Positions 1 to 23,912 of a stretch of DNA of 30,099 nucleotides are shown piece after piece; within the stretch, counting starts at the first letter, position 1, and each line of letters begins with the position of its first letter. The notes below the pieces were generated by a model. It saw only the letters and a list, made by a program, of their open reading frames with translations. It searched no databases and was not told where the DNA came from. A program made the position numbers and the translations under genes. The DNA is from an uncultured Chloroflexia bacterium (GTDB taxonomy: Bacteria > Chloroflexota > Limnocylindria > Limnocylindrales > CSP1-4), in NCBI GenBank assembly GCA_963766735.1, contig CAVYBU010000029.1, forward strand, positions 1 through 30,099. Direction: 5' to 3'.

Positions 1-1
1 C

Positions 2-223
2 GGGGCCCGGTGGCTCATCGTGGCCAAGTCCGACCACGGCGCCTGGCCGGCGATCCTCGACGGGTCGGAGCCGATGGCCAGGTGCTTCCGGGAGGTCCGG
101 CTGCCCGTCCCGGACGACCCGGCGGACGCAAAGGCCATCGAGGGCGTGCGTGTCTTCCGCATCGGCTGCGACGGCCTGGCCACGGGATCCGAGGCAGTCG
201 GCGCGGCGCTGCGCTCGCCGTAG
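2..223 (+). CDS. 3' end of a hypothetical protein (truncated by window edge)
   Basis: Frame 2 is open from the window start (GARWLIVAKSDHGAWPAILDG...) to TAG at 221-223, with GC-rich third positions; no recognisable motif. Confidence 0.55.
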   Translation, partial: GARWLIVAKSDHGAWPAILDGSEPMARCFREVRLPVPDDPADAKAIEGVRVFRIGCDGLATGSEAVGAALRSP

Positions 224-236
224 CCGCGGCACGGAC

Positions 237-242
237 TACACT
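237..242 (+). promoter_or_regulatory. Putative -10 element (TACACT) for a leaderless kinase transcript
   Basis: TAnnnT hexamer 7 nt before ATG 250; no Shine-Dalgarno sequence in between. Confidence 0.45.
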
Positions 243-249
243 CGGCACG

Positions 250-1347
250 ATGGATGGCCCCCGGAACGACGCGTCGAACACCCGGTTCGACAAGCTGCAC
301 GCCGAGGCGGCGGAGGCACTGACCTACGCCGCGAACACGCTGCGCGCCGTGCGGGACCGCTACCGGCAAGCGTACCTGGAGGACCTCGCCCGCTGGGAGG
401 CCCTGGCGGACGAGCTCGGCGCGCTTGAACACGGAGACGACGGTCGCCAGGGTCCGGCCGACCCTTCCAGCGACGGGAATGCGGCCCTGGCGGCGGAGTC
501 CGGCGCGGCAGACCGGCGGCTGCGCATGGTCCGGGGCGAGGTGGACCGCTCCCGGAAGGACCTTGCCGGCCACGAGGGCGAGCTGAGCCGGCTGGAGCTG
601 GCGATCCGCAACCTCGAGAGCACGTGGCTGTTCCTGGAGCGCGGGGACGCCTCGCTGATCACGGATCCGGCCCTGCCGGCCCTGCCCGCGGAACTCCGGA
701 TGCGGATCGTGGAGGCCCAGGAGGCCGAACGGTCGCGCATGGCCCAGGAGGTCCACGACGGGCCGGCCCAGGCGCTCTCGAGCGCGATCTTCCAGGTGGA
801 TTTCATCGAGCGGATCTTCGAAACGGACAGGCCGATGGCCCGCCAGGAGCTGCGGTTCCTGAGGGATCTGCTCCACCGGAATCTGGGTGACGTGCGCAGC
901 TTCATCGGCCATCTGCGCCCACCCCTGCTCGAGGAGCTGGGCCTGGACGGGTCCATCATGGACACGGTGGCCACGCAGGCCTCACTCTCTGGGCTGCACA
1001 TCGCGGCCGACCTGACTGCGCCCGCCGGCAGTCTGCCGGAGCCCGCCCAGACGGTCGTGCTGCGCGTGGTGCAGGAAGCGCTCCAGAATGTGCGCAAGCA
1101 CGCAGCTGCCGCGAACGTGGTGGTCACGACGGGGCTGGACGATGGACAATGGGTACTGGAGGTCCGGGACGATGGTCGCGGCTTCGACACCGGAGCTGTA
1201 GCGGCCCGTGGCCGCCGCAACTTCGGCCTCCAGTTCATGCGGGAGCGGGCCGAGCTGATCGGTGCGCGGTTTGAAGTGCGGTCGCGGACCGATGCCGGCA
1301 CGGTGGTCCGGCTGGCGATCCCGGTGACGCAAAAGGAGAGCGGATGA
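250..1347 (+). CDS. Cytoplasmic DegS-like sensor histidine kinase (coiled coil + HisKA_3 + HATPase_c)
   Basis: H-box ERSRMAQEVHDGPAQ (His codon 754-756), N-box QEALQNVRKHA, G1 DDGRGF, G2 FGLQFMRERA; helical charged N-terminus, no TM segment. Start moved from 10 to ATG 250 because 10-223 overlaps the upstream gene. Confidence 0.9.
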   Translation: MDGPRNDASNTRFDKLHAEAAEALTYAANTLRAVRDRYRQAYLEDLARWEALADELGALEHGDDGRQGPADPSSDGNAALAAESGAADRRLRMVRGEVDRSRKDLAGHEGELSRLELAIRNLESTWLFLERGDASLITDPALPALPAELRMRIVEAQEAERSRMAQEVHDGPAQALSSAIFQVDFIERIFETDRPMARQELRFLRDLLHRNLGDVRSFIGHLRPPLLEELGLDGSIMDTVATQASLSGLHIAADLTAPAGSLPEPAQTVVLRVVQEALQNVRKHAAAANVVVTTGLDDGQWVLEVRDDGRGFDTGAVAARGRRNFGLQFMRERAELIGARFEVRSRTDAGTVVRLAIPVTQKESG

Positions 1348-2084
1348 CCGAGTACGAGGGGCCTGAGCGCCGTCGATCCGGCCAGGAGCGGCGGACCGCT
1401 TATGAGCAGGTACAGATCCTGATCGTGGACGACCACGCGCTGTTCCGCGTGGGCATCCGCCAGATCCTGGAGCAGGAGGCCGATTTCGAGGTCGTCGCCG
1501 AGGCGGACGACGTGAGGACGGCCATCGACGCCGCGTTCGCCACCAACCCGGACATCATCCTGATGGACCTCTCGCTGCCCGCGCCCGGCGGCATCGAGAC
1601 CACGCAGCGTGTCAAGCGGGAGCTCCCCGCGGCCGCCATCGTGGTCATGGCCCAGGAGGAGGACGAGGATGCCCTGTTCGAATCGATCAAGGCCGGGGCG
1701 GCCGCGTTCATCCTGAAGGACATCGCCCCGGAAGACCTGGTGATGGTCATCCGCCGAGTGGTGGCGGGCGAGTACCTGATCAACGACAAGGTCTTCAGCA
1801 AGCCGGCCGTCGCCTCCCGCGTGCTCAAGGAGTTCCGGGAGCTGGCGGTCTATGGCCAGGAGGCCGCCCCCATCTTCGCGCCGCTCTCGCCGCGCGAGGT
1901 GGAGATCCTGGACAACATCGCCCAGGGCATGACCAACAAGCAGGTCGCCTACGCGCTCTCGATCAGCGAGCAGACGGTCAAGAACCACATGAGCTCCATC
2001 CTGCGCAAGCTCTCCGTCAACGACCGGACCCAGGCCGTGGTGTACGCGATGCGCCAGGGCTGGATCCGGATGCCGGAGGACTGA
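1344..2084 (+). CDS. NarL/DegU-family response regulator (REC + LuxR HTH)
   Basis: ILIVDDH, PDIILMD, AFILKD receiver motifs; LSPREVEIL...MTNKQVAYALSISEQTVKNHMSSILRKL LuxR HTH; ATGA overlap with the kinase. Confidence 0.93.
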   Translation: MTEYEGPERRRSGQERRTAYEQVQILIVDDHALFRVGIRQILEQEADFEVVAEADDVRTAIDAAFATNPDIILMDLSLPAPGGIETTQRVKRELPAAAIVVMAQEEDEDALFESIKAGAAAFILKDIAPEDLVMVIRRVVAGEYLINDKVFSKPAVASRVLKEFRELAVYGQEAAPIFAPLSPREVEILDNIAQGMTNKQVAYALSISEQTVKNHMSSILRKLSVNDRTQAVVYAMRQGWIRMPED

Positions 2085-2118
2085 TCCGCTCGCTGCGTCC
2101 CGGGGGGCTCCACGCCCG

Positions 2119-3297
2119 ATGACCACGCCCGAAACAGCGCCCGACGCCCCGGGATCCGCCCTTGAGGTCCAGCTGCACGCGGACCTGTCCACGCTCGACC
2201 GCGAGCTGGCCGAGATCGACATGCTCATCGGGCAGGCCAGGACGGAGGCCGTCCGGCACGAGCAGAGGCGGGCCCAGGCCGCCGAGCGGATCGGATCGGG
2301 CACGCAGGACGGGCCGGCCGGTTCGGGGGAAGCCTCGGACGCCTGGGCAAGCCTGGTGACGATGACCCGGCGTGCCGTGCTGATGGAGGCGCAGGCCGAC
2401 CTGCTCGACGGCAAGCGGAAGGCCGTGGCGCGTCACCGGGCTGCGGTCGCGGACGTGCTGGCGGCAATCGAGGAGCTGCCGGTGAAGCCCGCGGCGGGCG
2501 CGGCCGCGTCCGAGGACGGCGAGCAGGCCATGTCCCCGTCGATCTCGCGGGCGGTCCTCACGGCCCAGGAGGACCTCCGTCGAGACATCGCTCGCGCAAT
2601 GCACGACGGACCGGCGCAGTCGCTCACCAACATCGTCCTCCAGGTCCAGATCGTGGAGCGGTTCCTGGAGCGGGACCCGTCACAGGCCAGGAACGAGCTG
2701 CAGCTGCTGGTGTCGATGGTCCAGCAGACCCTGGACGCCACCAAGAGCTTCATCTTCGACGTCCGACCGATGGTGCTGGACGACCTGGGCCTGGTGCCCA
2801 CCCTCCGGCGCGCCGCCCGCGACCGCGGGCAGCGGGCGCACGTCCCCGTGCAGTTCGAGTCCATGGGCCAGGACCGGCGCCTGCCCATGGAGGTGGAGAG
2901 CGCGGTCTTCCGGATCCTGGACGAGGCGCTGGCCGCCTACCTGTCGCTCACACAGGAGAGGATCCTCCTGCGCCTGGACTGGACCGACACGCTGGAGGCC
3001 CGCCTCACCGCGCATCGCGCACCCGTGGACCCCACGGGTGACGCGCTGCCGGCCGTGCCGACCGGCGATGTCCCGGACGCCATCAAGCAGATGATCCAGG
3101 ACCGCCACGACGCACGCGCACTCGCGGACGCCGCGGCCGTGGAGGCAGCCATCATCGTGCTGCCGGCTCCCGTGCGCCGCGACATCGGCGAGCGTGCCGC
3201 ATCCATCGGGGCGACGGTCGAGGTCCTGGCGGGCGGCGGTGAGGTCCGCCTGGTGGTCCCACTGCCGCCGCCGGGTGAGGCAGGCGGCGAGGGATGA
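2119..3297 (+). CDS. DegS-like HisKA_3 protein with degenerate ATPase domain (probable pseudokinase / phosphotransferase)
   Basis: H-box RRDIARAMHDGPAQSL and RPMVLDDLGL are intact; N-box reads DEALAAY (no Asn), no DxGxG and no G2 box. Confidence 0.8.
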   Translation: MTTPETAPDAPGSALEVQLHADLSTLDRELAEIDMLIGQARTEAVRHEQRRAQAAERIGSGTQDGPAGSGEASDAWASLVTMTRRAVLMEAQADLLDGKRKAVARHRAAVADVLAAIEELPVKPAAGAAASEDGEQAMSPSISRAVLTAQEDLRRDIARAMHDGPAQSLTNIVLQVQIVERFLERDPSQARNELQLLVSMVQQTLDATKSFIFDVRPMVLDDLGLVPTLRRAARDRGQRAHVPVQFESMGQDRRLPMEVESAVFRILDEALAAYLSLTQERILLRLDWTDTLEARLTAHRAPVDPTGDALPAVPTGDVPDAIKQMIQDRHDARALADAAAVEAAIIVLPAPVRRDIGERAASIGATVEVLAGGGEVRLVVPLPPPGEAGGEG

Positions 3298-3458
3298 CGG
3301 AGCGGTCCGGGACCGGAGAGCCGGGACCCGGGATCCTGGAGACGTCTCTCGTGCTGGGGCTGGCGGTGCTGCTGGCGGCCACGATCCTCGTGTTCTTCGG
3401 CGGGCCCTTCGCAGACCTGATGGGCGTGATCGTGGACGCCGCCCATGGCGGACGCTGA
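3294..3458 (+). CDS. Divergent Flp pilin-like protein, 54 aa (not in ORF track)
   Basis: MTERSGTGEPGPGILETSLVLGLAVLLAATILVFFGGPFADLMGVIVDAAHGGR; ATGA overlap with upstream stop; aligns without gaps to GQGLAEYALILALIAIVAIIALIFLGG with G(-1) and E(+5). Confidence 0.7.
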   Translation: MTERSGTGEPGPGILETSLVLGLAVLLAATILVFFGGPFADLMGVIVDAAHGGR

Positions 3459-3482
3459 GCCCGGGCGAACCGGCCCGGCGGG

Positions 3483-3529
3483 ATAGGACCATCGTCCCAT
3501 TGGCGATGACGACGGGAAGCCTCTACTTT
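3483..3529 (+). promoter_or_regulatory. Putative pilin-1 promoter with imperfect palindromic operator
   Basis: ATAGGAC-CATC-GTCCCAT (3483-3500), GACGACGGG (3508-3516), TACTTT (3524-3529); the same layout recurs before pilin 3. Confidence 0.5.
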
Positions 3530-3585
3530 GCAGGTCGGCCCCCTTGCATCCTGGGCCGCGGCATTCATCTCGGGAGGTTTCGTCC

Positions 3586-3756
3586 ATGGCCCTCATCAAC
3601 GCGCTGCTCGCCTCGTTCCGCACGGACGAGGAGGGCCAGGGTCTCGCGGAGTACGCGCTGATCCTCGCGCTCATCGCCATCGTCGCGATCATCGCCCTGA
3701 TCTTCCTCGGCGGCCAGGTCTCGACGATCCTGTCGGACGTCGGCAACTCGATCTAG
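3586..3756 (+). CDS. flp: Flp family type IVc (Tad) pilin, copy 1
   Basis: MALINALLASFRTDEEG|QGLAEYALILALIAIVAIIALIFLGG..., Flp motif with E5/Y6; SD GGGAGG upstream of ATG 3586. Confidence 0.93.
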   Translation: MALINALLASFRTDEEGQGLAEYALILALIAIVAIIALIFLGGQVSTILSDVGNSI

Positions 3757-3776
3757 CGCGTCCGCTCTCCAGCGGA

Positions 3777-3805
3777 GAAGGCCGCCGGCTCGTCCGGCGG
3801 CCTTC
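3777..3805 (+). terminator. GC-rich hairpin after pilin 1
   Basis: GAAGGCCGCCGG-ctcgt-CCGGCGGCCTTC, perfect 12-bp stem; weak U-tail. Confidence 0.6.
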
Positions 3806-3896
3806 GTGCGTCCGGGCAACGGTTTTCCGGCCGGCGCCCCGCCCGCTTCCACGCTGCCGGGTGACCGTCGGCCCGCTCAGGTGCGGTCCAGAGGAG

Positions 3897-3925
3897 TTGA
3901 CACCCGCGGAGCGTCGGCATACCGT
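3897..3925 (+). promoter_or_regulatory. Sigma70-type promoter of pilin 2
   Basis: TTGACA (3897-3902), 17-nt spacer, TACCGT (3920-3925); strong SD AAAGGAGGT follows at 3963-3971. Confidence 0.7.
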
Positions 3926-3980
3926 CGGCATCGCCGCCGTCTCATCTGGCGGACTCTGACGGAAAGGAGGTACCACCCAC

Positions 3981-4151
3981 ATGACGCTTCTCAACGCACT
4001 CATCTCGCGCTTCTCGAGCGAGGAGGAGGGCCAGGGTCTCGCGGAGTACGCGCTGATCCTCGCGCTCATCGCCATCGTCGCCATCATCGCCCTGATCTTC
4101 CTCGGCGGCCAGGTCTCGACGATCCTGTCGGACGTCGGCAACTCGATCTAG
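3981..4151 (+). CDS. flp: Flp family pilin, copy 2, 56 aa (not in ORF track)
   Basis: MTLLNALISRFSSEEEG|QGLAEYALILALIAIVAIIALIFLGGQVSTILSDVGNSI; mature part identical to copy 1; SD AAAGGAGGT. Confidence 0.93.
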   Translation: MTLLNALISRFSSEEEGQGLAEYALILALIAIVAIIALIFLGGQVSTILSDVGNSI

Positions 4152-4174
4152 CTCCGACCCGCCAAGCGCACTGC

Positions 4175-4211
4175 CGCCGGCTGCCGTTCCTGGCAGCCGG
4201 CGTCGTGTTCT
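4175..4211 (+). terminator. Hairpin after pilin 2
   Basis: CGCCGGCTGCC-gttcct-GGCAGCCGGCG 11-bp stem followed by TCGTGTTCT. Confidence 0.6.
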
Positions 4212-4236
4212 CCGGCGGTTCCCCGGCGCACCGGGC

Positions 4237-4279
4237 GGACCATCGGAGGGGTTGCACGACGACGGGCAGGCGCTACCGT
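4237..4279 (+). promoter_or_regulatory. Putative pilin-3 promoter
   Basis: GGACCATCG (4237-4245), TTGCAC, GACGACGGG (4258-4266), TACCGT (4274-4279); parallels the pilin-1 upstream region. Confidence 0.5.
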
Positions 4280-4377
4280 AGGCAGACCTCCGGGGGCGGT
4301 ACGCGGGTATCTTCGCGCATCGCTGCATCAGGCACCCCGGACCGGGCAGCTTGCCCGAGAAGGAGGTGATCGCAGCC

Positions 4378-4557
4378 GTGCTGGCCATGTTCACGGCCCT
4401 GGCGGGTTCGATCGTCCGTCGCAACGACGAGGACGGTCAGGGACTCGCGGAGTACGCACTCATCCTGGCGCTCATCGCCATCGTCGCCATCGTCGCCCTG
4501 ATCTTCCTGGGAAGCCAGATCAGCGACAAGCTCAGCACAGTCGGGGACGCGCTCTAG
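4378..4557 (+). CDS. flp: Flp family pilin, copy 3
   Basis: ...RRNDEDG|QGLAEYALILALIAIVAIVALIFLGSQISDKLSTVGDAL; SD AGGAGGTGA at 4361-4369 favours GTG 4378 as start. Confidence 0.9.
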   Translation: MLAMFTALAGSIVRRNDEDGQGLAEYALILALIAIVAIVALIFLGSQISDKLSTVGDAL

Positions 4558-4579
4558 CGGCGTCCGGCACTCATTCGGC

Positions 4580-4615
4580 AGCCCGCCGGGTCATCCCGGC
4601 GGGCTTTCCATTTCC
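4580..4615 (+). terminator. Rho-independent terminator after pilin 3
   Basis: AGCCCGCCGGG-tcat-CCCGGCGGGCT 11-bp stem followed by TTCCATTTCC. Confidence 0.7.
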
Positions 4616-4800
4616 GCGGGGCACGCCGGCGAACTGGCGGCACGCGGGCCCCGGCGAGGCGTCCCTTGCAGGGCACCTTACGATGAACAGCGCATCCGCC
4701 CATTTCCTCCCAAGGGTCCTAGCCCTATTGGTTGGTCGTCGGGCGATTTCGCGGTGCTAGAGTGTTGCCACCTGTCACACGACCTCGGGGAGATACATCT

Positions 4801-5724
4801 TTGAAACGCTCGAATCGGTTGGTCCTGCTAATCGGATTCTTCCTCGCAATCGTTGCCTTCGTCCTCGTCTTCATGACGCTGCAAGGCGGTGGATCCACCA
4901 CCGGCAACCAGAACGATCCCGGCCTCAGGGAGGTCAACGTCGTCATCGCGGCGAAGGACATCCCGCTCGGCGCGAAGCTCACGTCGGACTCGGTGACGAC
5001 CAAGGTCTTCAAGGTCGCCGACAAGCCCACGGACAGCTACGGCGACCCGGTGGAGGTCGTCGGCCAGACGGCGCGCCAGCCCGTCACGAAGGATCAGCTC
5101 ATCACGAGCGCGATCCTCTACGGCTCCAGCCAGGGCATCACCAGCCTGACGGTGCCGGCGGGCAAGGTCGGCATCGCGGTCCAGGTGGACCAGGTGTCCG
5201 GCGTGGGCACGCTGACCAAGGCCGGCGACAACGTGGACATGCTGGTGGCACTCACCGGGGACAAGTTCCCGGTGGTGAGCGTCAACCCGGACGACCAGTC
5301 CATCACCGTCGTCTCGGGCATCAACTCCACCAGCGTCAAGCTCCTGCTCCAGGGCGCCCAGGTGATCGGGACCCTGCTCCCGCCGCCGCCGGCGGACACC
5401 GGCAACAACACCGAGGCTGAGGCGGGCACGGATGCCGGCGCGCCGACGAACCTCAACGGCCAGCAGCAGATCGTGATCCTCGCGGTCGACGCCCAGCAGG
5501 CCGAGATCGTCAAGTACGCCCAGCTCGACGGCAGCATCTCGCTGGTGCTGCGCAGCGCGGACGACTTCCGCGACCCGGTGACCGGTGAGCCGCTGGACCC
5601 GGAGCTGATCGTGCCGGTCCAGACGACGGGCGTCACGCTCCGGTCCCTCGTGGACAACAACGGCGTGCTGGTGCCGGAGCTGGTCGAGGCGATCCTTCCG
5701 GCGCAGGCGACGCCGGCGCCGTAA
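4801..5724 (+). CDS. cpaB: Flp pilus assembly protein CpaB/RcpC (SAF domain)
   Basis: N-terminal TM, VVIAAKDIPLGAKLT SAF motif, GVGTLTKAGDNVDML, C-terminal GSISLVLRS; TTG start with SD GGGAG and an extended -10 TGcTAGAGT at 4755-4763. Confidence 0.88.
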   Translation: MKRSNRLVLLIGFFLAIVAFVLVFMTLQGGGSTTGNQNDPGLREVNVVIAAKDIPLGAKLTSDSVTTKVFKVADKPTDSYGDPVEVVGQTARQPVTKDQLITSAILYGSSQGITSLTVPAGKVGIAVQVDQVSGVGTLTKAGDNVDMLVALTGDKFPVVSVNPDDQSITVVSGINSTSVKLLLQGAQVIGTLLPPPPADTGNNTEAEAGTDAGAPTNLNGQQQIVILAVDAQQAEIVKYAQLDGSISLVLRSADDFRDPVTGEPLDPELIVPVQTTGVTLRSLVDNNGVLVPELVEAILPAQATPAP

Positions 5725-5853
5725 CGCCGTGAGGGCCGGTGGCCCGCACGCCGCGCGAGCCGAGACGGGCCGGTTGACCCCGGCTCATCCCGGTCGCACC
5801 AATCCCGCACACCGCTGATACCAACCCAGGCCCCGAGGTCGGATCCACCACAT

Positions 5854-7119
5854 ATGGCAGACCAGATCCGCGTTCTCATCGTCGACGACATCCCGGAGAC
5901 CCGCGATCACCTCGCGAAGCTGCTTGGCTTCGAGTCGGACATCGAGGTCGTGGGAGCGGCGGCGTCCGGACGCGAGGCAATCGAGATGGCCAAGGGGCTG
6001 ACGCCCGACGTCGTCCTCATGGACATCAACATGCCGGACATGGACGGCATCACCGCCACAGAGCACCTGGCGGTCGAGGCCCCGACCACGGCCGTCGTGA
6101 TGATGTCCGTGCAGGGCGAGGCGGACTACCTCCGCCGGTCCATGCTGGCCGGCGCGCGCGAGTTCCTGGTCAAGCCCTTCTCCTCCGACGAGCTGACGTC
6201 GTCCATCCGGCACGTCTACACCCGCGAGCGAGACAAGCTCTCCCGGATCGCCCTCCAGCCCGCCGCTGCCGGCGCCCTCCCGGCCATGGCCCCCACCCCG
6301 CAAGCCCGCGCGGACAGCGAGCCCGGGCGCGTGGTGGCGGTCTTCGGTCCCAAGGGCGGCGTCGGCCGGACCACCCTCGCGGTGAACCTGGCTGTCGCCG
6401 CAGCCACCGAGCTGGGCCAGCGCACGTGTCTCGTGGATGCCTCGTTCCAGTTCGGCGACGTGGGCGTCCTGCTGAACCTCAACCCCAAGAACAAGTCCGT
6501 CGCGGACCTCATCCCGGAGCTGGAGAGCGGCGAAACCGAGTCGCTCGACACGTTCCTCATCAACCACTCCTCCGGGATCCGGGTCCTGCTGGCCCCGCCG
6601 TCACCGGAGATGGCAGAGCTCATCTCGCCGCATGGCGCCAAGCGCATGATCGAGGCGCTGCGCATGTCCCACGACCTGGTGGTCGTGGACTGCATGTCGT
6701 CGTTCAACGACACCACCCTCGCCATCCTGGATTTCGCCGACACCGTCCTCACGATGCTGTCGCTCGAGATCACGTCGATCAAGAACATCCGCCTCTTCCT
6801 GGAGGTGGCCGAGCAGCTCGGGTACGAGTCGGACAAGGTCCGGCTGGTCCTGAACCGTGCCGACTCGTCGCTGGGCATCCGCGTCGCCGACGTGGAGCAC
6901 TCGATCGGGCGGCGCGTGGATCACACGATCGTCTCGGACGGTCGGAGCGTCGTGTACGCCCTCAACCGGGGAGTACCGTTCTTCCTGTCAAACCGCGAGG
7001 CGCAGGTGTCCCAGGACGTCCTGCGGCTCGCGTCCGCCGTGGTGGGTTCCAGCACCGCGGCGGCCGGCGAGCCGGCCAAGAAGTCCGCGCAGAAGAAGTC
7101 GCTGTTCGCATGGCGATGA
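5854..7119 (+). CDS. cpaE: CpaE/TadZ-like protein: receiver domain + MinD/ParA-type ATPase
   Basis: REC motifs VLIVDD, VVLMDINMP, MMS, FLVKP; deviant Walker A GPKGGVGRTT; LVVVD; LVLNR; position between cpaB and cpaF. Confidence 0.88.
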   Translation: MADQIRVLIVDDIPETRDHLAKLLGFESDIEVVGAAASGREAIEMAKGLTPDVVLMDINMPDMDGITATEHLAVEAPTTAVVMMSVQGEADYLRRSMLAGAREFLVKPFSSDELTSSIRHVYTRERDKLSRIALQPAAAGALPAMAPTPQARADSEPGRVVAVFGPKGGVGRTTLAVNLAVAAATELGQRTCLVDASFQFGDVGVLLNLNPKNKSVADLIPELESGETESLDTFLINHSSGIRVLLAPPSPEMAELISPHGAKRMIEALRMSHDLVVVDCMSSFNDTTLAILDFADTVLTMLSLEITSIKNIRLFLEVAEQLGYESDKVRLVLNRADSSLGIRVADVEHSIGRRVDHTIVSDGRSVVYALNRGVPFFLSNREAQVSQDVLRLASAVVGSSTAAAGEPAKKSAQKKSLFAWR

Positions 7120-7166
7120 CGAAGCAGCGAGAGCAAGGGCCGTACACGGCCAAAGGGGTGTAGACG

Positions 7167-8579
7167 ATGTCCCTCCTCAAGCGCATCGAGAGCGCCCGTC
7201 CCGGCGCCGGGACAGGACCCGAAGGCGGTTCCAACGTCCCCGCGACCGCGCCGGGGGGGCCCGGCGGCCAGCCGCCGGCCTCACTTGGTGGCGGCCGGCT
7301 GACGTCCCAGGCCCCGGTCAGGGAGTCGTTCCGGGACGTGAAGTTCCGGATCCAGAACCGCGTCATCCAGGACCTGGACCCGAAGCTGGACCTGTCCAAC
7401 CAGGTCGAGGTCCGCCGGCAGATCGAGGAGATCTTCGGCAAGGTCATCGACGAGGAGGGCCTCGCCCTCACCCGCGCCGAGCGGGTGCGGATGCTGGAGC
7501 AGATCACCGACGAGATCATCGGCCTCGGCCCGCTGGAGCCCCTGCTCCGGGACGAGAGCATCTCCGAGGTCATGGTCAACGGCCCGCGCCAGGTCTACAT
7601 CGAGCGCTCCGGCCAGCTGGAGCTGACGAACGTCGTCTTCCAGAACGACGACCACGTGATGCGCATCATCGATCGGATCATCGCCCCGATCGGCCGCCGC
7701 GTGGACGAGTCCAGCCCGATGGTGGACGCCCGCCTCACAGACGGGTCGCGCGTGAACGCGATCATCCCGCCGCTGTCGCTGGTCGGCCCGGTGGTCACCA
7801 TCCGGAAGTTCTCGGCCAGCCCCCTCACCGTGGACGACCTGATCCGGTTCGGCACCGCCACCCCGGAGATGTTCGAGTTCCTGCGCGCCTCCGTGGAGGC
7901 CCGCCTGAACGTCTTCGTGTCGGGCGGCACCGGCTCCGGCAAGACGACCACGCTCAACGTCCTGTCGTCGTTCATCCCCAACGACGAGCGCATCGTGACG
8001 ATCGAGGACGCGGCCGAGCTGCAGCTCCGCCAGGAGCACGTGGTGACGCTGGAGTCCCGCCCGCCCAACATCGAGGGCAAGGGTGCGATCCCGATCCGCG
8101 AGCTCGTCCGCAACTCGCTGCGGATGCGGCCGGACCGGATCATCGTGGGAGAGTGTCGCAGCGGCGAGGCGCTGGACATGCTCCAGGCCATGAACACGGG
8201 CCACGACGGCTCGATGTCCACCGGCCACGCCAACAGCCCCCGCGACATGCTGTCCCGCCTGGAGACGATGGTGCTGATGGCGGGCGTGGACCTGCCGGTG
8301 CGCGCCATCCGGGAGCAGATCGCCTCCGCCGTGGACGTCATCGTCCACCAGGCCCGCCTCAAGGACGGGACCCGCCGGATCACGAACATCACCGAGGTCC
8401 AGGGCATGGAGGGTGACGTCATCGTGATGCAGGACGTGTTCGTGTTCGAGCAGACCGGCATCGTCGAGGGCAAGATCCAGGGCCACCTGAAGCCGACCGG
8501 CATCCGGCCCAAGTTCGTCGAGAAGTTCGAGGTCCAGGGCATCCACCTGCCGCCGGGCCTCTTCGGCTTCAGCTACTAG
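7167..8579 (+). CDS. cpaF: Tad pilus assembly ATPase CpaF/TadA
   Basis: GGTGSGKTT Walker A, TIEDAAEL, LRMRPDRIIVGECR, AMNTGHDGSMSTGHAN. Confidence 0.95.
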   Translation: MSLLKRIESARPGAGTGPEGGSNVPATAPGGPGGQPPASLGGGRLTSQAPVRESFRDVKFRIQNRVIQDLDPKLDLSNQVEVRRQIEEIFGKVIDEEGLALTRAERVRMLEQITDEIIGLGPLEPLLRDESISEVMVNGPRQVYIERSGQLELTNVVFQNDDHVMRIIDRIIAPIGRRVDESSPMVDARLTDGSRVNAIIPPLSLVGPVVTIRKFSASPLTVDDLIRFGTATPEMFEFLRASVEARLNVFVSGGTGSGKTTTLNVLSSFIPNDERIVTIEDAAELQLRQEHVVTLESRPPNIEGKGAIPIRELVRNSLRMRPDRIIVGECRSGEALDMLQAMNTGHDGSMSTGHANSPRDMLSRLETMVLMAGVDLPVRAIREQIASAVDVIVHQARLKDGTRRITNITEVQGMEGDVIVMQDVFVFEQTGIVEGKIQGHLKPTGIRPKFVEKFEVQGIHLPPGLFGFSY

Positions 8580-8599
8580 GAAGGCTGGGGAGCCCGCTC

Positions 8600-9616
8600 A
8601 TGGACAACATGACGATCGTCATCGCCGGCGTGGCCGCCCTCGCGATCCTCCTGATCGCGATCGGGATCGCCATGTCCGGCAGCGGCTCCGGGGTGAACGC
8701 CCGCCTCGAGCGGTACGCCTCCGGCAAGCCCGAGAAGGTGGAGACACCGGCGAATGGCCAGGGTGGCATCGCCGCGGCCATGGCGTCCAGCGCCACCATG
8801 ACCCAGCTCAACAAGGTGGTGGAGCAGCGCGACTTCGGCGCCAACCTGGCGCGCGAGATCGCGCGGGCGGACCTGCGCCTCAAGCCCAGCGAGTACCTGA
8901 TGATCTGGGCCGGGTCCACCGTGGGCGTGCCGCTCCTGATGTACGTGTTCTCGTTCGCGCTGCCGGCCCTCGGCAACCCGATCATCCTCCTGGTGGGGCT
9001 CCTCATCGGGTTCATGCTGCCGCGGTTCTGGCTGGGCCGCCGGAAGGGCGGGCGCCTCAGCAAGTTCAACAAGCAGCTGCCGGACACGATCACGCTGATC
9101 GCCAACGCCCTGCGCGCGGGCTCCTCGTTCCTGCAGGCCATCGAGCTTGTGGTCCGCGAGTCCCAGCCACCGATCTCCACGGAGTTCGGCCGCGTCATCC
9201 GCGAGGTCAACCTGGGCCTCTCCTTCGAGGTCGCCCTCGAGAACATGGTCCGGCGCGTCAGGTCCGACGACCTGGAGCTGATGGCCACCGCCATCTCGAT
9301 CCAGCACACCGTCGGCGGCAACCTGGCCGAGATCCTGGACTCGATCGCGTACACCATCCGGGAGCGCGTCCGCATCCAGGGCGAGATCCGGACCCTCACC
9401 GCGCAGCAGCGCCTGTCCGGCTACGTGGTCGGGTTCCTGCCGATCGGCCTGGCCGGGTTCCTGTTCATCGCGGCCCCCGGGTTCATGACGCCGATGTTCG
9501 ACGACCGGATCTCGATCATCGGGCTGCCGGGCGGGGTGATCATCCTGATGCTGGGCGGCTTCGCGATGTTCATGGGCTTCATGTTCATCCGCAAAATCGT
9601 CGACATCGAGGTCTAG
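8600..9616 (+). CDS. tadB: Tad platform protein TadB (T2SS F family)
   Basis: KQLPDTITLIANALRAGSS, IQHTVGGNLAEILD, IRTLTAQQRLS; TM segments; follows cpaF. Confidence 0.92.
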   Translation: MDNMTIVIAGVAALAILLIAIGIAMSGSGSGVNARLERYASGKPEKVETPANGQGGIAAAMASSATMTQLNKVVEQRDFGANLAREIARADLRLKPSEYLMIWAGSTVGVPLLMYVFSFALPALGNPIILLVGLLIGFMLPRFWLGRRKGGRLSKFNKQLPDTITLIANALRAGSSFLQAIELVVRESQPPISTEFGRVIREVNLGLSFEVALENMVRRVRSDDLELMATAISIQHTVGGNLAEILDSIAYTIRERVRIQGEIRTLTAQQRLSGYVVGFLPIGLAGFLFIAAPGFMTPMFDDRISIIGLPGGVIILMLGGFAMFMGFMFIRKIVDIEV

Positions 9617-9619
9617 CCC

Positions 9620-10552
9620 ATGGAGCCCCTGTCCCTGATCGTGGCGGCCATCGCATTCGTCGCCATCCTGATGATCTTCGTCGGCCTGGCCGGCCGCGCT
9701 CCGGTGGATCCGGTCCAGGCCCGCCTGACCCAGCTGGGGACCGCCCAGGCGGCCAGCCTGGAGGAGCTGGAGCTGCAGCAGCCGCTCTTCGAGCGGACCA
9801 TCCGCCCGCTGGCGAACCGGTTGTCCGGTTCGGTCGAGCGGGTCACCAGCGCCTCCTTCTCCGCGACAACCGAGAAGCGCCTGGCGCTGGCGGGCAATCC
9901 CGGCGACCTGCGCGTGGCGGACTGGCTGGGCATCAAGGCCGTGGGCGCGATCGTCGGCGCCGGCCTGTTCGTGCTGCTGTTCGTGGTCCCCGCCGTGATC
10001 AAGGTGCCGTTCCCGATCAACCTGGCGATGATCGCGGTCGGCGTGATGTTCGGCTACACCATCCCGGAGTTCTGGCTGGGCGGGCGCGTCAAGAAGCGCC
10101 AGAAGGCGATCCTGCTCCAGATCCCGGACGCCCTTGACCTGCTCACGATCTCCGTCCGCGCGGGCCTCGGCTTCGACGGCGCGCTGGCCAAGGTGGTGGA
10201 GAAGCTCAAGGGGCCCCTCACCGAGGAGTTCCGGCGGGCGCTGGCCGAGATCCGCGTGGGCAAGGCCAGGCGGGACGCGCTGCGGGACATCGTCGGGCGC
10301 ACCGAGGTGCCGCCCCTCACCAACTTCATCGGGGCGATCATCCAGGCCGAGCAGCTGGGCGTGTCGATCAGCAAGGTGCTGCAGGTCCAGTCCGAGCAGC
10401 TGCGGATCGAGCGCCGGCAGCGCGCCGAGGAGATGGCGGCCAAGGCGCCGATCAAGATGCTGTTCCCGCTGGTCGGGTGCATCTTCCCGTCGCTGTTCAT
10501 CGTCATCCTGGGCCCGGCGATCATCCTGATCATGATCAACCTCAGGGTCTGA
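9620..10552 (+). CDS. tadC: Tad platform protein TadC (T2SS F family)
   Basis: IPDALDLLTISVRAGLGFD, QAEQLGVSI, RQRAEEMAAKAPIKMLFPLV. Confidence 0.92.
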   Translation: MEPLSLIVAAIAFVAILMIFVGLAGRAPVDPVQARLTQLGTAQAASLEELELQQPLFERTIRPLANRLSGSVERVTSASFSATTEKRLALAGNPGDLRVADWLGIKAVGAIVGAGLFVLLFVVPAVIKVPFPINLAMIAVGVMFGYTIPEFWLGGRVKKRQKAILLQIPDALDLLTISVRAGLGFDGALAKVVEKLKGPLTEEFRRALAEIRVGKARRDALRDIVGRTEVPPLTNFIGAIIQAEQLGVSISKVLQVQSEQLRIERRQRAEEMAAKAPIKMLFPLVGCIFPSLFIVILGPAIILIMINLRV

Positions 10553-10554
10553 CC

Positions 10555-10650
10555 GGGACGGTGGGGTCCGGGGGTCCGACGGCGGGGGTCCGCAGGGTCC
10601 GGGCGGGCGGGCCGGGCCGGGTTCGCGGCCGGGGGTTCGCGGCCAGGGGG
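10555..10650 (+). repeat. G-run-rich low-complexity tract (GGGTCCG and GGTTCGCGGCC repeats)
   Basis: About 12 runs of 3 or more G in 96 nt; GGGTCCG x4, GGTTCGCGGCC x2. Confidence 0.7.
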
Positions 10651-11015
10651 TCGCGCGCAATCTCGAGCGGGATGCCGTCCTGGCCGAGCGCCTGGAGACG
10701 GCCGCATCGCTCTGGGGCAAGTTCATGGGCCTGATGGGGCGCCCGTCGCTGCCGGCCGGCGAGGGGCTGTGGCTGCCGGCCAGCAACGGGATCCACATGA
10801 TGTTCATGCGCTTCCCGATCGACGCGGTGTTCGTCTCCCGCCCGGACGCGGAGGGAGTGCGGCGCGTGCGATCGGTGCATCGCGGGTTGCGGCGGTGGAC
10901 GGGGGTCGTGTGGCTGGTCCGGGGCGCGGACGGCGTGCTGGAGCTGCCGGTCGGGACGATCGACGCGACTGGGACCGCGGTGGGCGACCGGGTGGAGATC
11001 CGCGAGACCGCGTAG
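10650..11015 (+). CDS. DUF192-family protein (start uncertain; possibly frameshifted 5' end)
   Basis: GLMGR...GEGLW...IHMMFMRFPIDAVFV...VLELPVG...VGDRV is the DUF192 pattern; in-frame VARNLERDAVLAERLETAASLWGKF precedes ATG 10725 with no ATG/GTG/TTG back to the TGA at 10533. Confidence 0.75.
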   Translation, partial: VARNLERDAVLAERLETAASLWGKFMGLMGRPSLPAGEGLWLPASNGIHMMFMRFPIDAVFVSRPDAEGVRRVRSVHRGLRRWTGVVWLVRGADGVLELPVGTIDATGTAVGDRVEIRETA

Positions 11016-11160
11016 GGGTTCCGGGCGCGCGGCGCGTTTCGGCGTGGGCGCGGGCGCGGCGCGGTTGGCGCCGGGCGCGGCGCGGCGCCGGGCGCGGGAC
11101 CCGGGCGCGACCGGCGACATGGTGAGCCGCGCATAAGCGGCTCGCGCCATCGTTCGGGTC

Positions 11161-11835
11161 GTGACCCGCGGATTGAACCCCATCGGCCGCCTCCTGGACC
11201 TCGCCCTGCCCGCCGCCTGCGCCGGCTGTGGCGTGGAGGGCGAGCCTCTCTGCGCCACGTGCCGCCCCGCGCTGGACGCGCGGCTCACGCTGCCGGCGGG
11301 AACGCCTCTGGGGCTCGCCGACGGTCCCCCCGAGCCGCTGCTCCAGCTGGACTGGTGCGCCCCGTTCGCGGGCGTGACGCGGCGGGCCCTGCACGCGCTC
11401 AAGTACACGGGCGAGCGCCGGCTGGCCGTCCCGCTCGGCGCTGCGGTCGCGGCCCGATGGCGCGCGGCTGGGGCGGGCGGCGACCTCTTCGTCCCGGTGC
11501 CGGTCCACGCGTCGCGGCGCCGGGAGCGAGGGTTCGACCAGGCGGAGCTCATCGCCGCGGCGGCATCGGACGCCCTCGGCCTCCCGTGGCGGCCGGCTCT
11601 CGTCCGCGCCCGGGCGACAGCGGCGCAGTACCGACTGGATCGCGGCCACCGGGCGAGGAACGTGCACGCTGCGTTCGAGGTTCGCAACGGATCGACGGCC
11701 GCGGTCGCGGGACGCTGGGTGGTGCTGGTGGACGATGTCGTCACGACGGGCGCGACGCTGGCCGCCTGCGCGGAGGCGCTCCTGGCATCCGGGGCGACCG
11801 CCGTCAGCGCCGTGACCGTTGCCCGGGAACGATAG
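11161..11835 (+). CDS. comF: ComF family protein (zinc ribbon + PRTase domain)
   Basis: CAGC...LCATC, ALKY, VPVPVH..RRRERGFDQAELIA, VVLVDDVVTTGATL. Confidence 0.92.
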   Translation: MTRGLNPIGRLLDLALPAACAGCGVEGEPLCATCRPALDARLTLPAGTPLGLADGPPEPLLQLDWCAPFAGVTRRALHALKYTGERRLAVPLGAAVAARWRAAGAGGDLFVPVPVHASRRRERGFDQAELIAAAASDALGLPWRPALVRARATAAQYRLDRGHRARNVHAAFEVRNGSTAAVAGRWVVLVDDVVTTGATLAACAEALLASGATAVSAVTVARER

Positions 11836-11880
11836 GACGATGGCGCCACCTGGCCCTGTGGGCCGGCTCCCGCACCCGTC

Positions 11881-11886
11881 TATACT
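11881..11886 (+). promoter_or_regulatory. Putative -10 element for hpf
   Basis: TATACT in the comF-hpf gap; no clear -35; SD GGGAGGT before GTG 11983. Confidence 0.5.
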
Positions 11887-11982
11887 CGAACCCCGGGTGG
11901 GGCCGATATCCCCGGGTCGGGCCGCCATCGCCGGCCCACCCGCCCCCGCAGCCAGGCGCACCGCAGCGCCGGGAGGTCAACC

Positions 11983-12576
11983 GTGAGGACGATCGTCAGG
12001 GGCAAGAACATCGAGGTTCCGGACCGGGTCCGGCAGTACACCGAACGCAAGTTCGTCCGCCTCGAGCGCTTCCTTGATGACCGCACGGACGCCGTCGTCG
12101 AGCTCTCCAACGAGGCACATCGGAGTGCCGCCGACGCGCACATCGTGGACGTCACGCTCATCATCGACGGGACGACGCTGCGCAGCCGCGCGACCGGAAG
12201 CTCGTACCAGGCCGCCCTCGACGAGGTCGTGGACAAGGTCGAGCGCCAGGCGATCGACCACAAGGAGAAGCCCCGCGTCCGTTCCCGCCCGGAGCTGGAG
12301 AAGGCGCTCCTCCGCAAGATCGCGGACGGGACGGCCGACGCCACCAGCGATCGGCAGATCGTGAAGACCAAGCGCTTCGCCATCGAACCGATGTTCGAGG
12401 AGGACGCGGTCACGGCGATGGAGGAGCTGGGCCACGACTTCTACGTCTTCGTGAACGCCGAGAACGAGCACGTGGCGGTCCTCTACCGGCGCAAGGACGG
12501 GCGCTACGGCCTGATCGAGCCGGTCGTGGGCGGCGAGTACACCCAGCGCAAGCCGTCGAAGGACGCCCGCCGGTAG
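11983..12576 (+). CDS. hpf: Ribosome hibernation promoting factor (long HPF / RaiA)
   Basis: IVRGKNIEV...ALDEVVDKVERQ; C-terminal IVKTKRF...PMFEEDAVTAMEELGHDFYVF...VLYRRKDGRYGLIE. Confidence 0.94.
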   Translation: MRTIVRGKNIEVPDRVRQYTERKFVRLERFLDDRTDAVVELSNEAHRSAADAHIVDVTLIIDGTTLRSRATGSSYQAALDEVVDKVERQAIDHKEKPRVRSRPELEKALLRKIADGTADATSDRQIVKTKRFAIEPMFEEDAVTAMEELGHDFYVFVNAENEHVAVLYRRKDGRYGLIEPVVGGEYTQRKPSKDARR

Positions 12577-12585
12577 GACGACCGC

Positions 12586-12619
12586 CGGCAGGAGGCGGGG
12601 CGGCAGGAGGCGGGGCGGC
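12586..12619 (+). repeat. 15-bp tandem repeat
   Basis: CGGCAGGAGGCGGGG x2 plus CGGC in the hpf-nfo gap. Confidence 0.7.
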
Positions 12620-12715
12620 TCCGGCAGCTCCGGCGGCGGGGCGGCCCCGGCGGCGGGCGAGGGTCCCTGCCCCAAGTCCCGGTACTCCGGCCCGCCGGTC
12701 GGCTAGGATCGGGAG

Positions 12716-13771
12716 ATGCTGCCGAACGGACGGCGCCTCGGCGCCCACCTCCCCCTGGGCCGCGGCATGGTCCGGGCGGCTGATCGGGCCGCAGCGATCG
12801 GCGCGTCGGCGCTGCAGGTGTTCAGCGACAACCCGACGTCCTGGCGCCGCCGCGAGACGCTGCCGCGGGAGCTGCCGGCCTTCCGGGACCGCCTCGTCGC
12901 CCACGACATCGCCCCGCTGGCGATCCACGCCCCCTACCTCATCAACCTCGCCGGCCCGGAGCCGGACCTGCACGATCGATCCGTCTCGGTCCTCGCGAAC
13001 GAGATCCGGGTGGCGGCCGCGTACGGGGCGCGCTTCGTCAACGTGCACATTGGCTCGCACCGGGGCGCCGGTCCCGCCGCCGGCGTGGACCGGCTGGCGG
13101 ACGGCATCAGGCGGGTGTTCGAGCTGGCGGACACGGACGCCGCCCCCGGCACGGACACGGTGATCCTCGTGCTCGAGAACGGCGCGGGCGCCGGGTTCGG
13201 GATGGGGGCGACGTTCGAGGAGCTGCAGCAGATCGATGAGGCGGTGGCGGCCGCCGGAGTACACCGCGCACGGTTCGGCTTCTGCCTGGACACCGCCCAC
13301 GCCTGGGGAGCCGGCTATCCGATCGACACGCCCTCGGGCGTGGACGAGACGCTGGACGCGTTCGACCGGCTGGTGGGCCTGGGTCGCCTGCGCATGGTCC
13401 ACGTGAACGACTCACGCGAGGAGCGCGGGTCGCGCGCCGATCGGCACGAGCACGTCGGGGCCGGCCGGATCGGGGCCGCGGGGCTCGGTCGGGTGCTGAC
13501 CCACGAGGCGTTGGACCACGTGACGTACTACCTCGAGACCCCGGGCATGGAGTCCGGCTACGACGCCGTCAACATCGCCCGAGCGCTGGACCTCGCCGCG
13601 GGGCGTCCGCTTGCGGACCTCCCGCCCGAGGCTCACGAGACCCGTGCGTCGCGCGGGCACAGCGCCCCTCCAGAGGCAGACGGCGATCCTCCGGCGACGG
13701 AGGGCGCCTTCCCGGTGGCGGAGGGCGATCCTCCGGTGGCTGTCCCCCGGCGCGGTCGGTCCGGCCGGTGA
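12716..13771 (+). CDS. nfo: Endonuclease IV (AP endonuclease family 2)
   Basis: HAPYLINL, VHIGS, LENGAG, FCLDTAH, VHVNDS, DRHEHVG, YLETP zinc-ligand motifs; TAGGAT 6 nt before the ATG. Confidence 0.93.
   Translation: MLPNGRRLGAHLPLGRGMVRAADRAAAIGASALQVFSDNPTSWRRRETLPRELPAFRDRLVAHDIAPLAIHAPYLINLAGPEPDLHDRSVSVLANEIRVAAAYGARFVNVHIGSHRGAGPAAGVDRLADGIRRVFELADTDAAPGTDTVILVLENGAGAGFGMGATFEELQQIDEAVAAAGVHRARFGFCLDTAHAWGAGYPIDTPSGVDETLDAFDRLVGLGRLRMVHVNDSREERGSRADRHEHVGAGRIGAAGLGRVLTHEALDHVTYYLETPGMESGYDAVNIARALDLAAGRPLADLPPEAHETRASRGHSAPPEADGDPPATEGAFPVAEGDPPVAVPRRGRSGR
13679..13741 (+). repeat. 21-bp degenerate tandem repeat x3 in the nfo tail
   Basis: Encodes DGDPPAT-EGAFPVA-EGDPPVA. Confidence 0.7.
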
Positions 13772-15390: not shown

Positions 15391-15415
15391 CGCCAAGCAT
15401 GCGAGCACCGAACGC

Positions 15416-15451
15416 GCGAACGCCGGCCCCTGCAGGCCGGCGCTCGCTTGT
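15416..15451. terminator. Hairpin between convergent genes
   Basis: GCGAaCGCCGGCC-cctgca-GGCCGGCGcTCGC followed by TTGT. Confidence 0.5.
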
Positions 15452-15500
15452 CCCCGAGACCCAAACGTGGAGGGACGTCCGGGTCGTGCCCTGAGAAGTG

Positions 15501-16061: not shown

Positions 16062-16310
16062 GCTCGCTCTGGGCTAGGTACCGGGTGCCTTACCCGGGAT
16101 AGCTGCAGTGTCGGTGGGATGGTGCGTCCACCCAATCACCCGTTGGTACTTGCACCCGGTGCGCCCCCGACAACACCGTCGTGACGTCCGGTGTGGTCGT
16201 GTGGGGTCCGGCGTAGGCCGTTCGGGGGAGGGGGTCCCGGTCAGCGGGCCGCGCCCACGCCTCGGCTCTCAGGGACCGCACCCGCGCGTCCAGCGACCGG
16301 CCCTGCGCCC

Positions 16311-18202: not shown

Positions 18203-18251
18203 CCATTCACTCCGGCGGAGCACCGTCCGCTGGCTGGCGTGCCCATCCTCC

Positions 18252-18410
18252 GCGATTCCAGTCCTGCGGGACTGAGATCGCGTCCGGTAGGGCCCGTCAC
18301 CCAGCCATGGTCACCGGGATTGGCCGAGACGCCCGACGACCAGGAGAGAGAGGAAGACTGGCGGCACCGCGGGCTACCGCAGGCGATCTCAGTCCGCAGA
18401 CTGGAATCGC
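18252..18410. repeat. REPIN/MITE-like element, copy 1
   Basis: Left arm GCGATTCCAGTCCTGCGGGACTGAGATCGC (18252-18281) and inverted right arm GCGATCTCAGTCCGCAGACTGGAATCGC (18383-18410); both arms recur at 21330-21545. Confidence 0.8.
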
Positions 18411-18441
18411 CGAGGATGCCCACGGCGCTGCCCGGTCCCAC

Positions 18442-21586: not shown

Positions 21587-23889
<2,303 letters not shown>

Positions 23890-23912
23890 TGCTCGCTACC
23901 GCTCCGGGCCGC

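Follow-up and report, generated by a model that had tools for sequence, protein, structure and literature searches.

The stretch of DNA analysed here, hereafter the window, is a whole contig of 30,099 bases with ~70% G+C from a metagenome-assembled genome (MAG) of an uncultured member of the Limnocylindrales (Chloroflexota), and it carries a Tad pilus locus that is headed by two DegS-like histidine kinases (HK1 and HK2) with a response regulator (RR) between them and that runs on into comFC and hpf. We propose, as an evenly balanced judgement drawn from gene content and neighbourhood, that it represents an old Chloroflexota neighbourhood (one or more DegS-family kinases with or without a NarL-type regulator, flp pilin genes, cpaB, a receiver-bearing cpaE, cpaF, tadB, tadC, DUF192, comFC and hpf) that would encode a regulated Tad pilus, possibly used for DNA uptake. 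Taken separately, a regulatory link between the kinases or regulator and the pilus appears slightly favoured, and a role of the pilus in DNA uptake is put forward tentatively, as a possible but somewhat doubtful function. The main reason to suppose that the kinase signals to the pilus machine itself is that in several lineages, termed clade A below, the receiver domain of CpaE is the sole receiver at hand.

Signaling Genes at the Head of the Locus

The kinase trio HK1-RR-HK2, the pilin genes, the tad machine, DUF192, comF and hpf all lie on the plus strand between 250 and 12576 according to open reading frames, Pfam and NCBIfam (Table 1), just where the initial annotation of this DNA had listed them as a co-oriented set. 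HK1 is built of a coiled-coil N-terminus, a HisKA_3 DHp domain and a HATPase_c domain with N, G1 and G2 boxes, and its translation, judged by eye, holds no evident membrane segment; with RR, whose best NCBIfam models are NarP and NarL, both under their cut-offs, it thus makes up a soluble HisKA_3 plus HATPase_c kinase beside a NarL-type regulator. The ATGA coupling described at two junctions is present at both: the stop of HK1 overlaps the start of RR (1347/1344) and the stop of HK2 overlaps the start of pil0, the first pilin gene (3297/3294, letters 'gATGAc' at 3294).

HK2 had been called a pseudokinase, and the term is apt. It retains the coiled coil and a DHp domain with the H-box histidine (His162), followed by a CA-domain remnant that has lost the N-box Asn, G1 (DxGxG) and the G2 glycines, and it lacks HATPase_c. 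H162, D163, G164 and P165 are invariant in an alignment of 28 HK2 sequences, whose 46 invariant columns include the H-box and DHp helix 2, and in 30 of 33 loci the gene reads through without interruption for 342-430 aa. The C-terminal third is poorly conserved between f1, the window's family, and the sister family f3. Compared by hhalign, the HK2 family and the intact kinases match end to end (probability 100%, E 1.8e-74, 346 columns); the PDB match of HK2 is confined to the DHp domain of DesK (residues 149-222).

The label DegS/DegU-like, also given at first sight, holds for the relatives and not for the window's own kinases by the Pfam test. Among 52 homologous kinases from 50 loci outside the class, 50 have HisKA_3 plus HATPase_c and 27 match Pfam DegS (PF05384), 20 of them above its cut-off (best 60 bits), but neither HK1 nor HK2 of the window matches PF05384 even at E 10; the window kinases are therefore homologous to the DegS type without being members of it by this test. 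In a kinase tree of 83 sequences (FastTree, SH-like supports, midpoint root), all 80 DegS-like proteins are united in a single clade (support 97) that excludes 3 other HisKA_3 kinases of the genome. The HK1 proteins of f1 and f3 join the kinases that stand upstream in the trios of family f36 (clade B, support 99), and HK2 of f1 and f3, with one HATPase_c-less protein of f6, nests in clade C, which holds most pilin-adjacent kinases and also those kinases of the f36 trios that are intact and next to the pilin genes (support 97). Judged by this placement and by the profile-profile alignment, HK2 is a degenerate orthologue of an ancestral pilin-adjacent DegS-like kinase, and HK1 is, by sequence, a paralogue of the HK2-type kinase. 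The surface of DHp helix 1 differs consistently between them, with 'N[LIFV][IV]L' in HK2 and the ancestral type and 'NAIF.VEY' in HK1, which suggests that HK1 and HK2 have separate partners.

Table 1. Features of the locus in window positions, with other features of the window in the last rows.
Feature	Position	Strand	Evidence and remarks
HK1, intact DegS-like histidine kinase	250..1347	+	HisKA_3 56 bits, HATPase_c 46 bits
RR, NarL/LuxR-type response regulator	1344..2084	+	Response_reg 84.7 bits, GerE 79.6 bits
HK2, degenerate DegS-like kinase	2119..3297	+	Pfam: HisKA_3 only
pil0, 54-aa divergent Flp-like prepilin	3294..3458	+	G/PGILET, then hydrophobic helix; no Pfam Flp match
flp1, Flp prepilin	3586..3756	+	G/QGLAEY; Flp_Fap 25.9 bits; ribosome-binding site GGGAGG; repeat family D1
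GC-rich hairpin after flp1	~3778-3804		
flp2, Flp prepilin	3981..4151	+	G/QGLAEY; repeat unit 89% identical in DNA to that of flp1
GC-rich hairpin after flp2	~4176-4201		
flp3, Flp prepilin	~4378..4557	+	G/QGLAEY; Flp_Fap 28.6 bits; ribosome-binding site GAAGGAGG upstream of 4378
Terminator-like stem-loop after flp3	4580..4605	+	11 pairs, 10 of them G-C, then T-rich tail
cpaB/rcpC	4732..5724	+	RcpC 52.7 bits, SAF 34.7 bits; TIGR03177 103.6 bits (cut-off 71)
cpaE/tadZ, receiver (residues 7-118) fused to ParA/MinD-type ATPase	5854..7119	+	Response_reg 102.4 bits, AAA_31 51.3 bits
cpaF/tadA, secretion ATPase	7167..8579	+	T2SSE 217 bits; TIGR03819 347 bits
tadB, platform protein	8600..9616	+	T2SSF 72.8 bits
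tadC, platform protein	9620..10552	+	T2SSF 73.2 bits
DUF192 protein, tail of the tad block directly before comF	10725..11015	+	PF02643 50 bits
comFC/GntX-family protein (Cys4 ribbon and PRTase domain)	11161..11835	+	Pribosyltran 29.8 bits
hpf, long-form ribosome hibernation factor	11983..12576	+	Ribosomal_S30AE 67 bits, Ribosom_S30AE_C 86.5 bits
3' end of membrane-protein gene without Pfam family	2-223		full length 357 aa on contig C19
F1Fo ATP synthase operon (beta, alpha, delta, a subunits)	21587-27948	-	
Big_9/cadherin-like protein	28237-29784		

A Canonical Receiver in the Pilus Machine

All five machine components (CpaF/TadA, TadB, TadC, CpaE/TadZ and CpaB/RcpC) are present in the window. 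What we add to the earlier description is that the receiver of CpaE (102 bits) is canonical: in an alignment of 31 rows, the 30 that are Chloroflexota CpaE orthologues all retain the DD pair, phospho-Asp, Ser and Lys, and the one other row (L203) is the RR of its locus, included by mistake. The nearest PDB relatives of this receiver are CheY, VraR, NarL and DesR. The comFC product scores under the NCBIfam cut-offs (GntX 89 of 304; TIGR00201 85 of 233.55).

The genome bin to which the window belongs measures 3.6 Mb in 35 contigs, with a completeness of 93.85% and a contamination of 4.22%. It was proposed at the outset that the genome be checked for competence genes and a prepilin peptidase, and these were all found: comEA and comEC are adjacent on contig C8 and dprA is on C2, so that ComEA, ComEC, ComFC and DprA are all present, and a single prepilin peptidase (Peptidase_A24, 212 aa) stands alone outside the window at C30:179507-180145. 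No match to the secretin PF00263 was found in this 93.85% complete genome, which is expected for a monoderm-type system and not disqualifying. T2SSE ATPases occur in the tad locus, in its duplicate on contig C19 and as one orphan on C17; the Flp motif, searched through the 3.6 Mb as a control for pilin detection, occurs in the tad locus, in the C19 duplicate and at 2 non-hydrophobic chance sites only. By these two inventories, no pilus system other than that of the window was found in the genome. TadE-type pseudopilins (PF07811) lie outside the window and far from the tad locus, six at C6:27589-34920 and one at C7:275397.

The orphan CpaF-like ATPase (C17:113271-115139; L207:8771-10639, minus strand) is 66% identical to CpaF over 423 aa; its frame also holds a RidA/L-PSP domain, and platform genes were not seen nearby. 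In some other families a second TadA-like ATPase stands between comF and hpf (e.g., L235:10236-11372), to which the orphan may correspond.

Conservation in the Family and in Sister Families

HK2 orthologues (E <1e-100) were found in 18 of 24 same-genus genomes, with fragments in 2 and none in 4 (completeness 68-90%). Pilin genes follow RR-HK2 in all 17 of the same-genus loci, and cpaB-cpaE-cpaF-tadB-tadC-DUF192 is kept in every one of the 15 that reach far enough, 14 of which also have comF and 13 hpf. The same order recurs in 10/10 loci from other genera, where comF is always found (once 7.8 kb away) and hpf in 8/10, so that it is shared by all genera sampled in the window's family. RR is 86-91% identical within the genus (full-length matches), 78-84% identical in other genera of the family and 55-60% identical in the sister families f3 and f5.

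Counted over genomes, 7 of them unpublished, HK2 homologues occur in 85/91 of f1, 82/92 of f3, 2/2 of f5 and, weakly, 7/103 of f4; the small-genome family f2 gave no match in 12 genomes. Families f3 and f5 retain the trio HK1-RR-HK2 (RR in 9/10 loci), and the cpaF orthologue, 65-69% identical, lies away from it in the five genomes examined, mostly on another contig. There the tad block of f3 reads flp, prepilin peptidase, receiver-cpaE, cpaF, tadC, DUF192, and in 5/5 f3/f5 genomes comF is found ~2.3 kb downstream of cpaF with the kinase trio elsewhere; hpf was not found in these genomes with the query used. Our first view, in which comF was a mere bystander of synteny, was dropped after these genomes and the phylum surveys described below, since comF stays with tad where the kinases do not.

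Recurrence across Chloroflexota

HK2-like proteins, with a coiled coil and DHp, occur in 141 of 401 Chloroflexota genomes (three of them unpublished). For a kinase-centred sample, 50 loci from 21 families outside the class were picked from the match list blind to context, with genes called by tblastn with the window proteins and by the Flp motif. In 35 of the 50 loci, spread over 15 of the 21 families, flp and/or tad genes lie directly downstream on the same strand; cpaE/cpaF are found in 23/50 (10 families), and 17 of these 23 machine-bearing loci (8 families) run through tadC, with or without DUF192, into comF, with hpf after it in 10/17 (5 families). DUF192 follows tadC in f3 and many other families, and in the loci of f19 DUF192 and comF overlap or stand at most 15 nt apart. 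A second, comF-centred sample was not conditioned on the kinase and comprised 40 loci from 34 further or overlapping families; DUF192 directly precedes comF in all 7 of its tad-bearing loci, and hpf follows comF in 12/40, 8 of them without tad. Both samples taken together, the full neighbourhood is frequent and deep, but patchy across the phylum.

In the clade-A families f9, f19, f28 and f56 the cluster holds a kinase and a receiver-bearing CpaE and no regulator, and the best matches to RR in 5 clade-A genomes are 33-41% identical, which is the level of paralogues; the CpaE receiver is therefore the sole receiver in these clusters. In f17, f18 and f30 (L226, L228, L240) an RR-like NarL-type regulator (43-55% identity) closely precedes comF, and the interval holds no tad genes; it looks as if the tad block was lost or never inserted there. 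Such loci, together with comF-hpf pairs that lack tad, fit part of the initial annotation, in which the tad genes fill the stretch between a DegSU-like pair and comF-hpf.

Inserts of 5-8 kb of other genes separate tadC from DUF192 or DUF192 from comF in L217 and L218 (f4), L244 (f34) and L087; despite them, DUF192-comF or tad-DUF192 remains together.

Pilin Genes and Their Surroundings

Four Flp-type pilins had been counted in the locus. Three are canonical in carrying G/QGLAEY, but the fourth, pil0, is divergent; tblastn matches it at the corresponding position in 14 of the 17 same-genus loci. The Flp_Fap scores of the canonical three (22-29 bits) are below the Pfam cut-off of 32.2, and the flp orthologue of f3 reaches 33.9 bits, above the cut-off. 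The start of flp3 is uncertain (TTG 4351, GTG 4378 or ATG 4387). Terminator-like sites number 4 in 13 kb against 2.1 +/- 1.3 in shuffles, hence their count alone is not significant and placement is what matters. When the upstream regions of the three flp genes of the window were aligned, no block in common appeared. Several same-genus assemblies break inside or just after the near-identical flp repeats.

Possible Working of the Locus and Alternative Explanations

If a regulated Tad pilus is indeed encoded here, the intact HK1 would sense a cytoplasmic cue and phosphorylate RR, and phosphorylated RR would set the transcription of the pilin genes. The phosphoryl signal would also reach the CpaE receiver and thereby gate pilus assembly. 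HK2, unable to bind ATP, could influence this flow in any of three ways: as a phosphatase, by phosphotransfer or in a heterodimer with HK1. The pilin genes would make up one strongly expressed unit that ends at a hairpin, with the machine genes next, and the pilus would most likely capture DNA for ComEA-ComEC-ComFC-DprA, adhesion or surface motility being an alternative or additional use. The presence of hpf would be due to an ancient comF-hpf synteny, so that this gene is probably a neighbour and not part of the pilus system.

A more elaborate version, which we regard as quite improbable, is a four-step phosphorelay to the pilus machine. HK1 would be its sole ATP-using kinase and HK2 a Spo0B-like His-phosphotransferase or phosphatase between the NarL-type RR and the CpaE receiver, so that a cytoplasmic cue would switch both pilin transcription and the assembly of a Chloroflexota competence pilus that works together with DUF192 and ComFC. 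On this view, Bacillus would share the order 'DegSU - surface appendage - ComF - HPF' as a module going back to the ancestors of the Terrabacteria. The make-up of HK2, with the His kept and the ATP site gone, suits a His-phosphotransfer protein of a phosphorelay, and a relay role is purely what we infer from it.

Several observations weigh against a dedicated regulation of the pilus and raise the alternative of inherited synteny without wiring, in which the trio would be a general cytoplasmic stress or physiology regulator that lies beside tad by descent, with comF and hpf as old neighbours and the modules working independently. The trio is kept in f3 and f5, yet tad, comF and hpf are absent within ~15 kb of it in 10/10 loci (8 with full flank), and in the one f3/f5 genome with both on one contig, trio and tad are 460 kb apart; a trio that can stand apart in this way need not serve the pilus exclusively. 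Outside the class 15/50 kinase loci have no tad genes nearby, and HK1 itself is missing from the cluster in 2/10 loci from other genera. On the side of comF, tad lies within 9.5 kb upstream in only 7/40 loci (6/34 families), comF and hpf occur together without tad in 8/40, and 25/40 lack both tad and hpf. In the window tadC, DUF192, comF and hpf stand 145-172 nt from one another, and within the genus the DUF192-comF spacing varies from ~70 nt to 2.5 kb, one genome having no comF within 6 kb; given these gaps and insertions, comF is not tightly operonic here. A scan for sigma-70-like promoters gave 0 sites and a 10-mer search in 73 flp upstream regions of the family returned only the preceding flp hairpin and the ribosome-binding site, with no regulator motif; the relatives, moreover, are not independent samples. 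Against mere descent, however, kinase and pilin genes are adjacent (a few hundred bases, same strand) in 15/21 families of different classes whose flanks differ, HK2 and pil0 share the ATGA overlap, and the tree mixes kinases that adjoin tad with others that do not (12 changes versus 27.7 in shuffles). In addition, comF remains behind tad in genomes whose trio lies elsewhere, and DUF192 and comF overlap or are closely spaced in f19. We rate synteny without wiring as a serious but rather unlikely explanation. The linkage in relatives on which the initial annotation had staked its case is thus borne out in the family (17/17 and 10/10 loci) and in much of the phylum (35/50, and 17/23 into comF), but fails in f3/f5 and in most of the comF-centred sample.

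The pilus could also be regulated and serve adhesion, aggregation or surface motility only, with comFC as a historical neighbour unrelated to it. Tad pili are classically adhesins, and homologues of ComFC are widespread in bacteria that are not known to transform, which speaks against a role in DNA uptake. Likewise, the Chloroflexales are reported to have only pilus genes of the Tad type, and these were proposed to drive gliding (PMC7332563). The spacing between DUF192 and comF (145 nt here, up to 2.5 kb in same-genus genomes) and the 7/40 tad-comF adjacencies in unconditioned loci point the same way. On the other hand, the genome, in which no second pilus system was found, keeps comEA-comEC, comFC and dprA, comF stays with tad-DUF192 in f3/f5 and 8 further families, and Tad-dependent transformation is proven in a monoderm (PMC4322843); a pilus for adhesion or motility alone is, in our estimate, unlikely. 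There is, finally, the question of whether HK2 is merely a decaying relic without a function of its own. Although every ATP-binding motif is lost and the C-terminal third is poorly conserved between f1 and f3, the gene persists in 85/91 f1 and 82/92 f3 genomes, with its frame (342-430 aa) intact in 30/33 loci, 46 invariant columns that take in the H-box and DHp helix 2, the ancestral DHp surface retained and translational coupling to pil0, and we find decay very improbable. The proposal of a regulated pilus is the one we carry forward, and with it the overall interpretation given in the initial annotation is partly supported.

Other Features of the Window and Its Second Copy

The entire window (1-30099) is collinear, at 95-98% identity, with positions 18535-48306 of contig C19 of the same bin. 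About 100 gap openings fall in the first 13.7 kb of this alignment, and the frames of HK1, HK2, cpaB, cpaE and tadB are broken in the C19 copy. Because the duplicated stretch takes in the ATP synthase operon, the C19 copy probably represents another strain variant that ended up in the same bin, and not a true duplication. Two HK2-bearing contigs are also present in each of two other MAGs. Positions 13640-18440 of the window are only 80-85% identical to the C19 copy, with flanks at 95-98%; they encode a PMT_2-type glycosyltransferase, an LPG_synthase_TM protein and a PHP-domain protein, that is, surface-modification genes that diverge faster than their surroundings.

The gene of the 357-aa membrane protein stands directly upstream of HK1 throughout the window's family, and not so in f3 or other classes. 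In L086 and L088, from two other genera, the conserved upstream gene abuts RR, and the degenerate HK2 is the sole kinase beside the regulator. A search of positions 1-13000 against Rfam at E up to 1 returned nothing beyond two chance-level matches. RNA libraries match the window only at small shares (0.05-0.13 of sampled words). Contigs of four of these libraries (Logan), 90-99% alike to the window and thus from relatives, cover pieces of most genes and bridge some junctions, with contigs at 637-1850, 1953-2212, 7005-7208 and 9448-9723; assembled contigs show neither transcription nor operons, and no conclusion on expression or habitat is therefore drawn from them.

Significance and Comparison with Known Systems

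Chloroflexota are abundant in soils and sediments and mostly uncultured, and to our knowledge nothing is known of the regulation of their pili or of their DNA uptake. The neighbourhood described here ties, across the phylum, a cytoplasmic DegS-type kinase to the sole pilus system, to a phosphorylatable CpaE/TadZ and to ComFC, and it yields testable predictions, namely phosphotransfer between kinase and receiver, regulator-dependent flp expression and Tad-dependent transformation. HK2 offers a natural example of a kinase paralogue that has long been retained without ATP binding. Should the link to DNA uptake be true, a second large monoderm phylum besides Actinobacteria would have Tad-based competence, and DUF192 would gain a functional context.

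To call the locus an undescribed system, as was done at first, is too strong in kind, as kinase-regulated Tad loci and Tad-dependent transformation are already known from the literature. A literature search of main texts without supplements brought up no account of a Chloroflexota tad locus joined by comFC, by DegS-like kinases or by a degenerate paralogue of a kinase. In Pseudomonas aeruginosa, the PprA-PprB two-component system beside the tad locus reportedly controls the Flp pilus genes, as Bernard and colleagues are said to have shown in 2009. As in the window, two-component genes adjoin a tad locus there; P. aeruginosa differs in being a diderm with a secretin and another type of kinase, no pseudokinase and no link to comF.

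In Bacillus subtilis, what we take to be the neighbourhood is degSU ... comF ... hpf, with flagellar and comFA/FB genes in between. DegS-DegU shares with the window a cytoplasmic coiled-coil HisKA_3 kinase, a NarL-type regulator, comFC and hpf downstream and genes for a surface appendage between them; the differences are that tad and not flagellar/comFA/FB genes lie between in the window, and that HK1 and HK2 have no Pfam DegS match. Spo0B of the Bacillus sporulation phosphorelay consists of a DHp-like hairpin with the phospho-His and a C-terminal domain of kinase CA origin in which ATP binding has been lost. HK2 is like it, by description, in having a phospho-His DHp and a dead CA remnant, and is itself a HisKA_3/DegS-like derivative.

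A close parallel is Micrococcus luteus, in which Flp pili are required for transformation (PMC4322843) and an operon of cpaB, cpaE and a PAS kinase affects transformation, two-component control of pilin production being noted as common (PMC8467076). The word comF has 0 occurrences in those two texts (PMC4322843; PMC8467076), and a DUF192 at the end of Tad operons was noticed in Bacillota (PMC12786226). The Tad/Flp pilus of M. luteus is like that of the window in being of the monoderm type without secretin, in a genome with comEA-comEC and dprA and no other pilus system, and in both a histidine kinase is encoded beside cpaB/cpaE. The kinase of M. luteus is of the PAS type, whereas those of the window are cytoplasmic and DegS-like (HisKA_3), two in number with one catalytically dead, and are joined by a NarL-type RR; unlike M. 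luteus, the window also has a canonical CpaE receiver and has comFC and DUF192 attached to the locus. The receiver of classical TadZ is described as atypical, whereas in the CpaE of the window every phospho-acceptor residue is canonical and conserved throughout the phylum. In its overall build, a ParA/MinD ATPase with an N-terminal receiver-like domain, this protein resembles the TadZ/CpaE of Aggregatibacter and Caulobacter, which, as summarized in the second M. luteus paper, are needed for the assembly or placement of the Tad pilus (PMC8467076).

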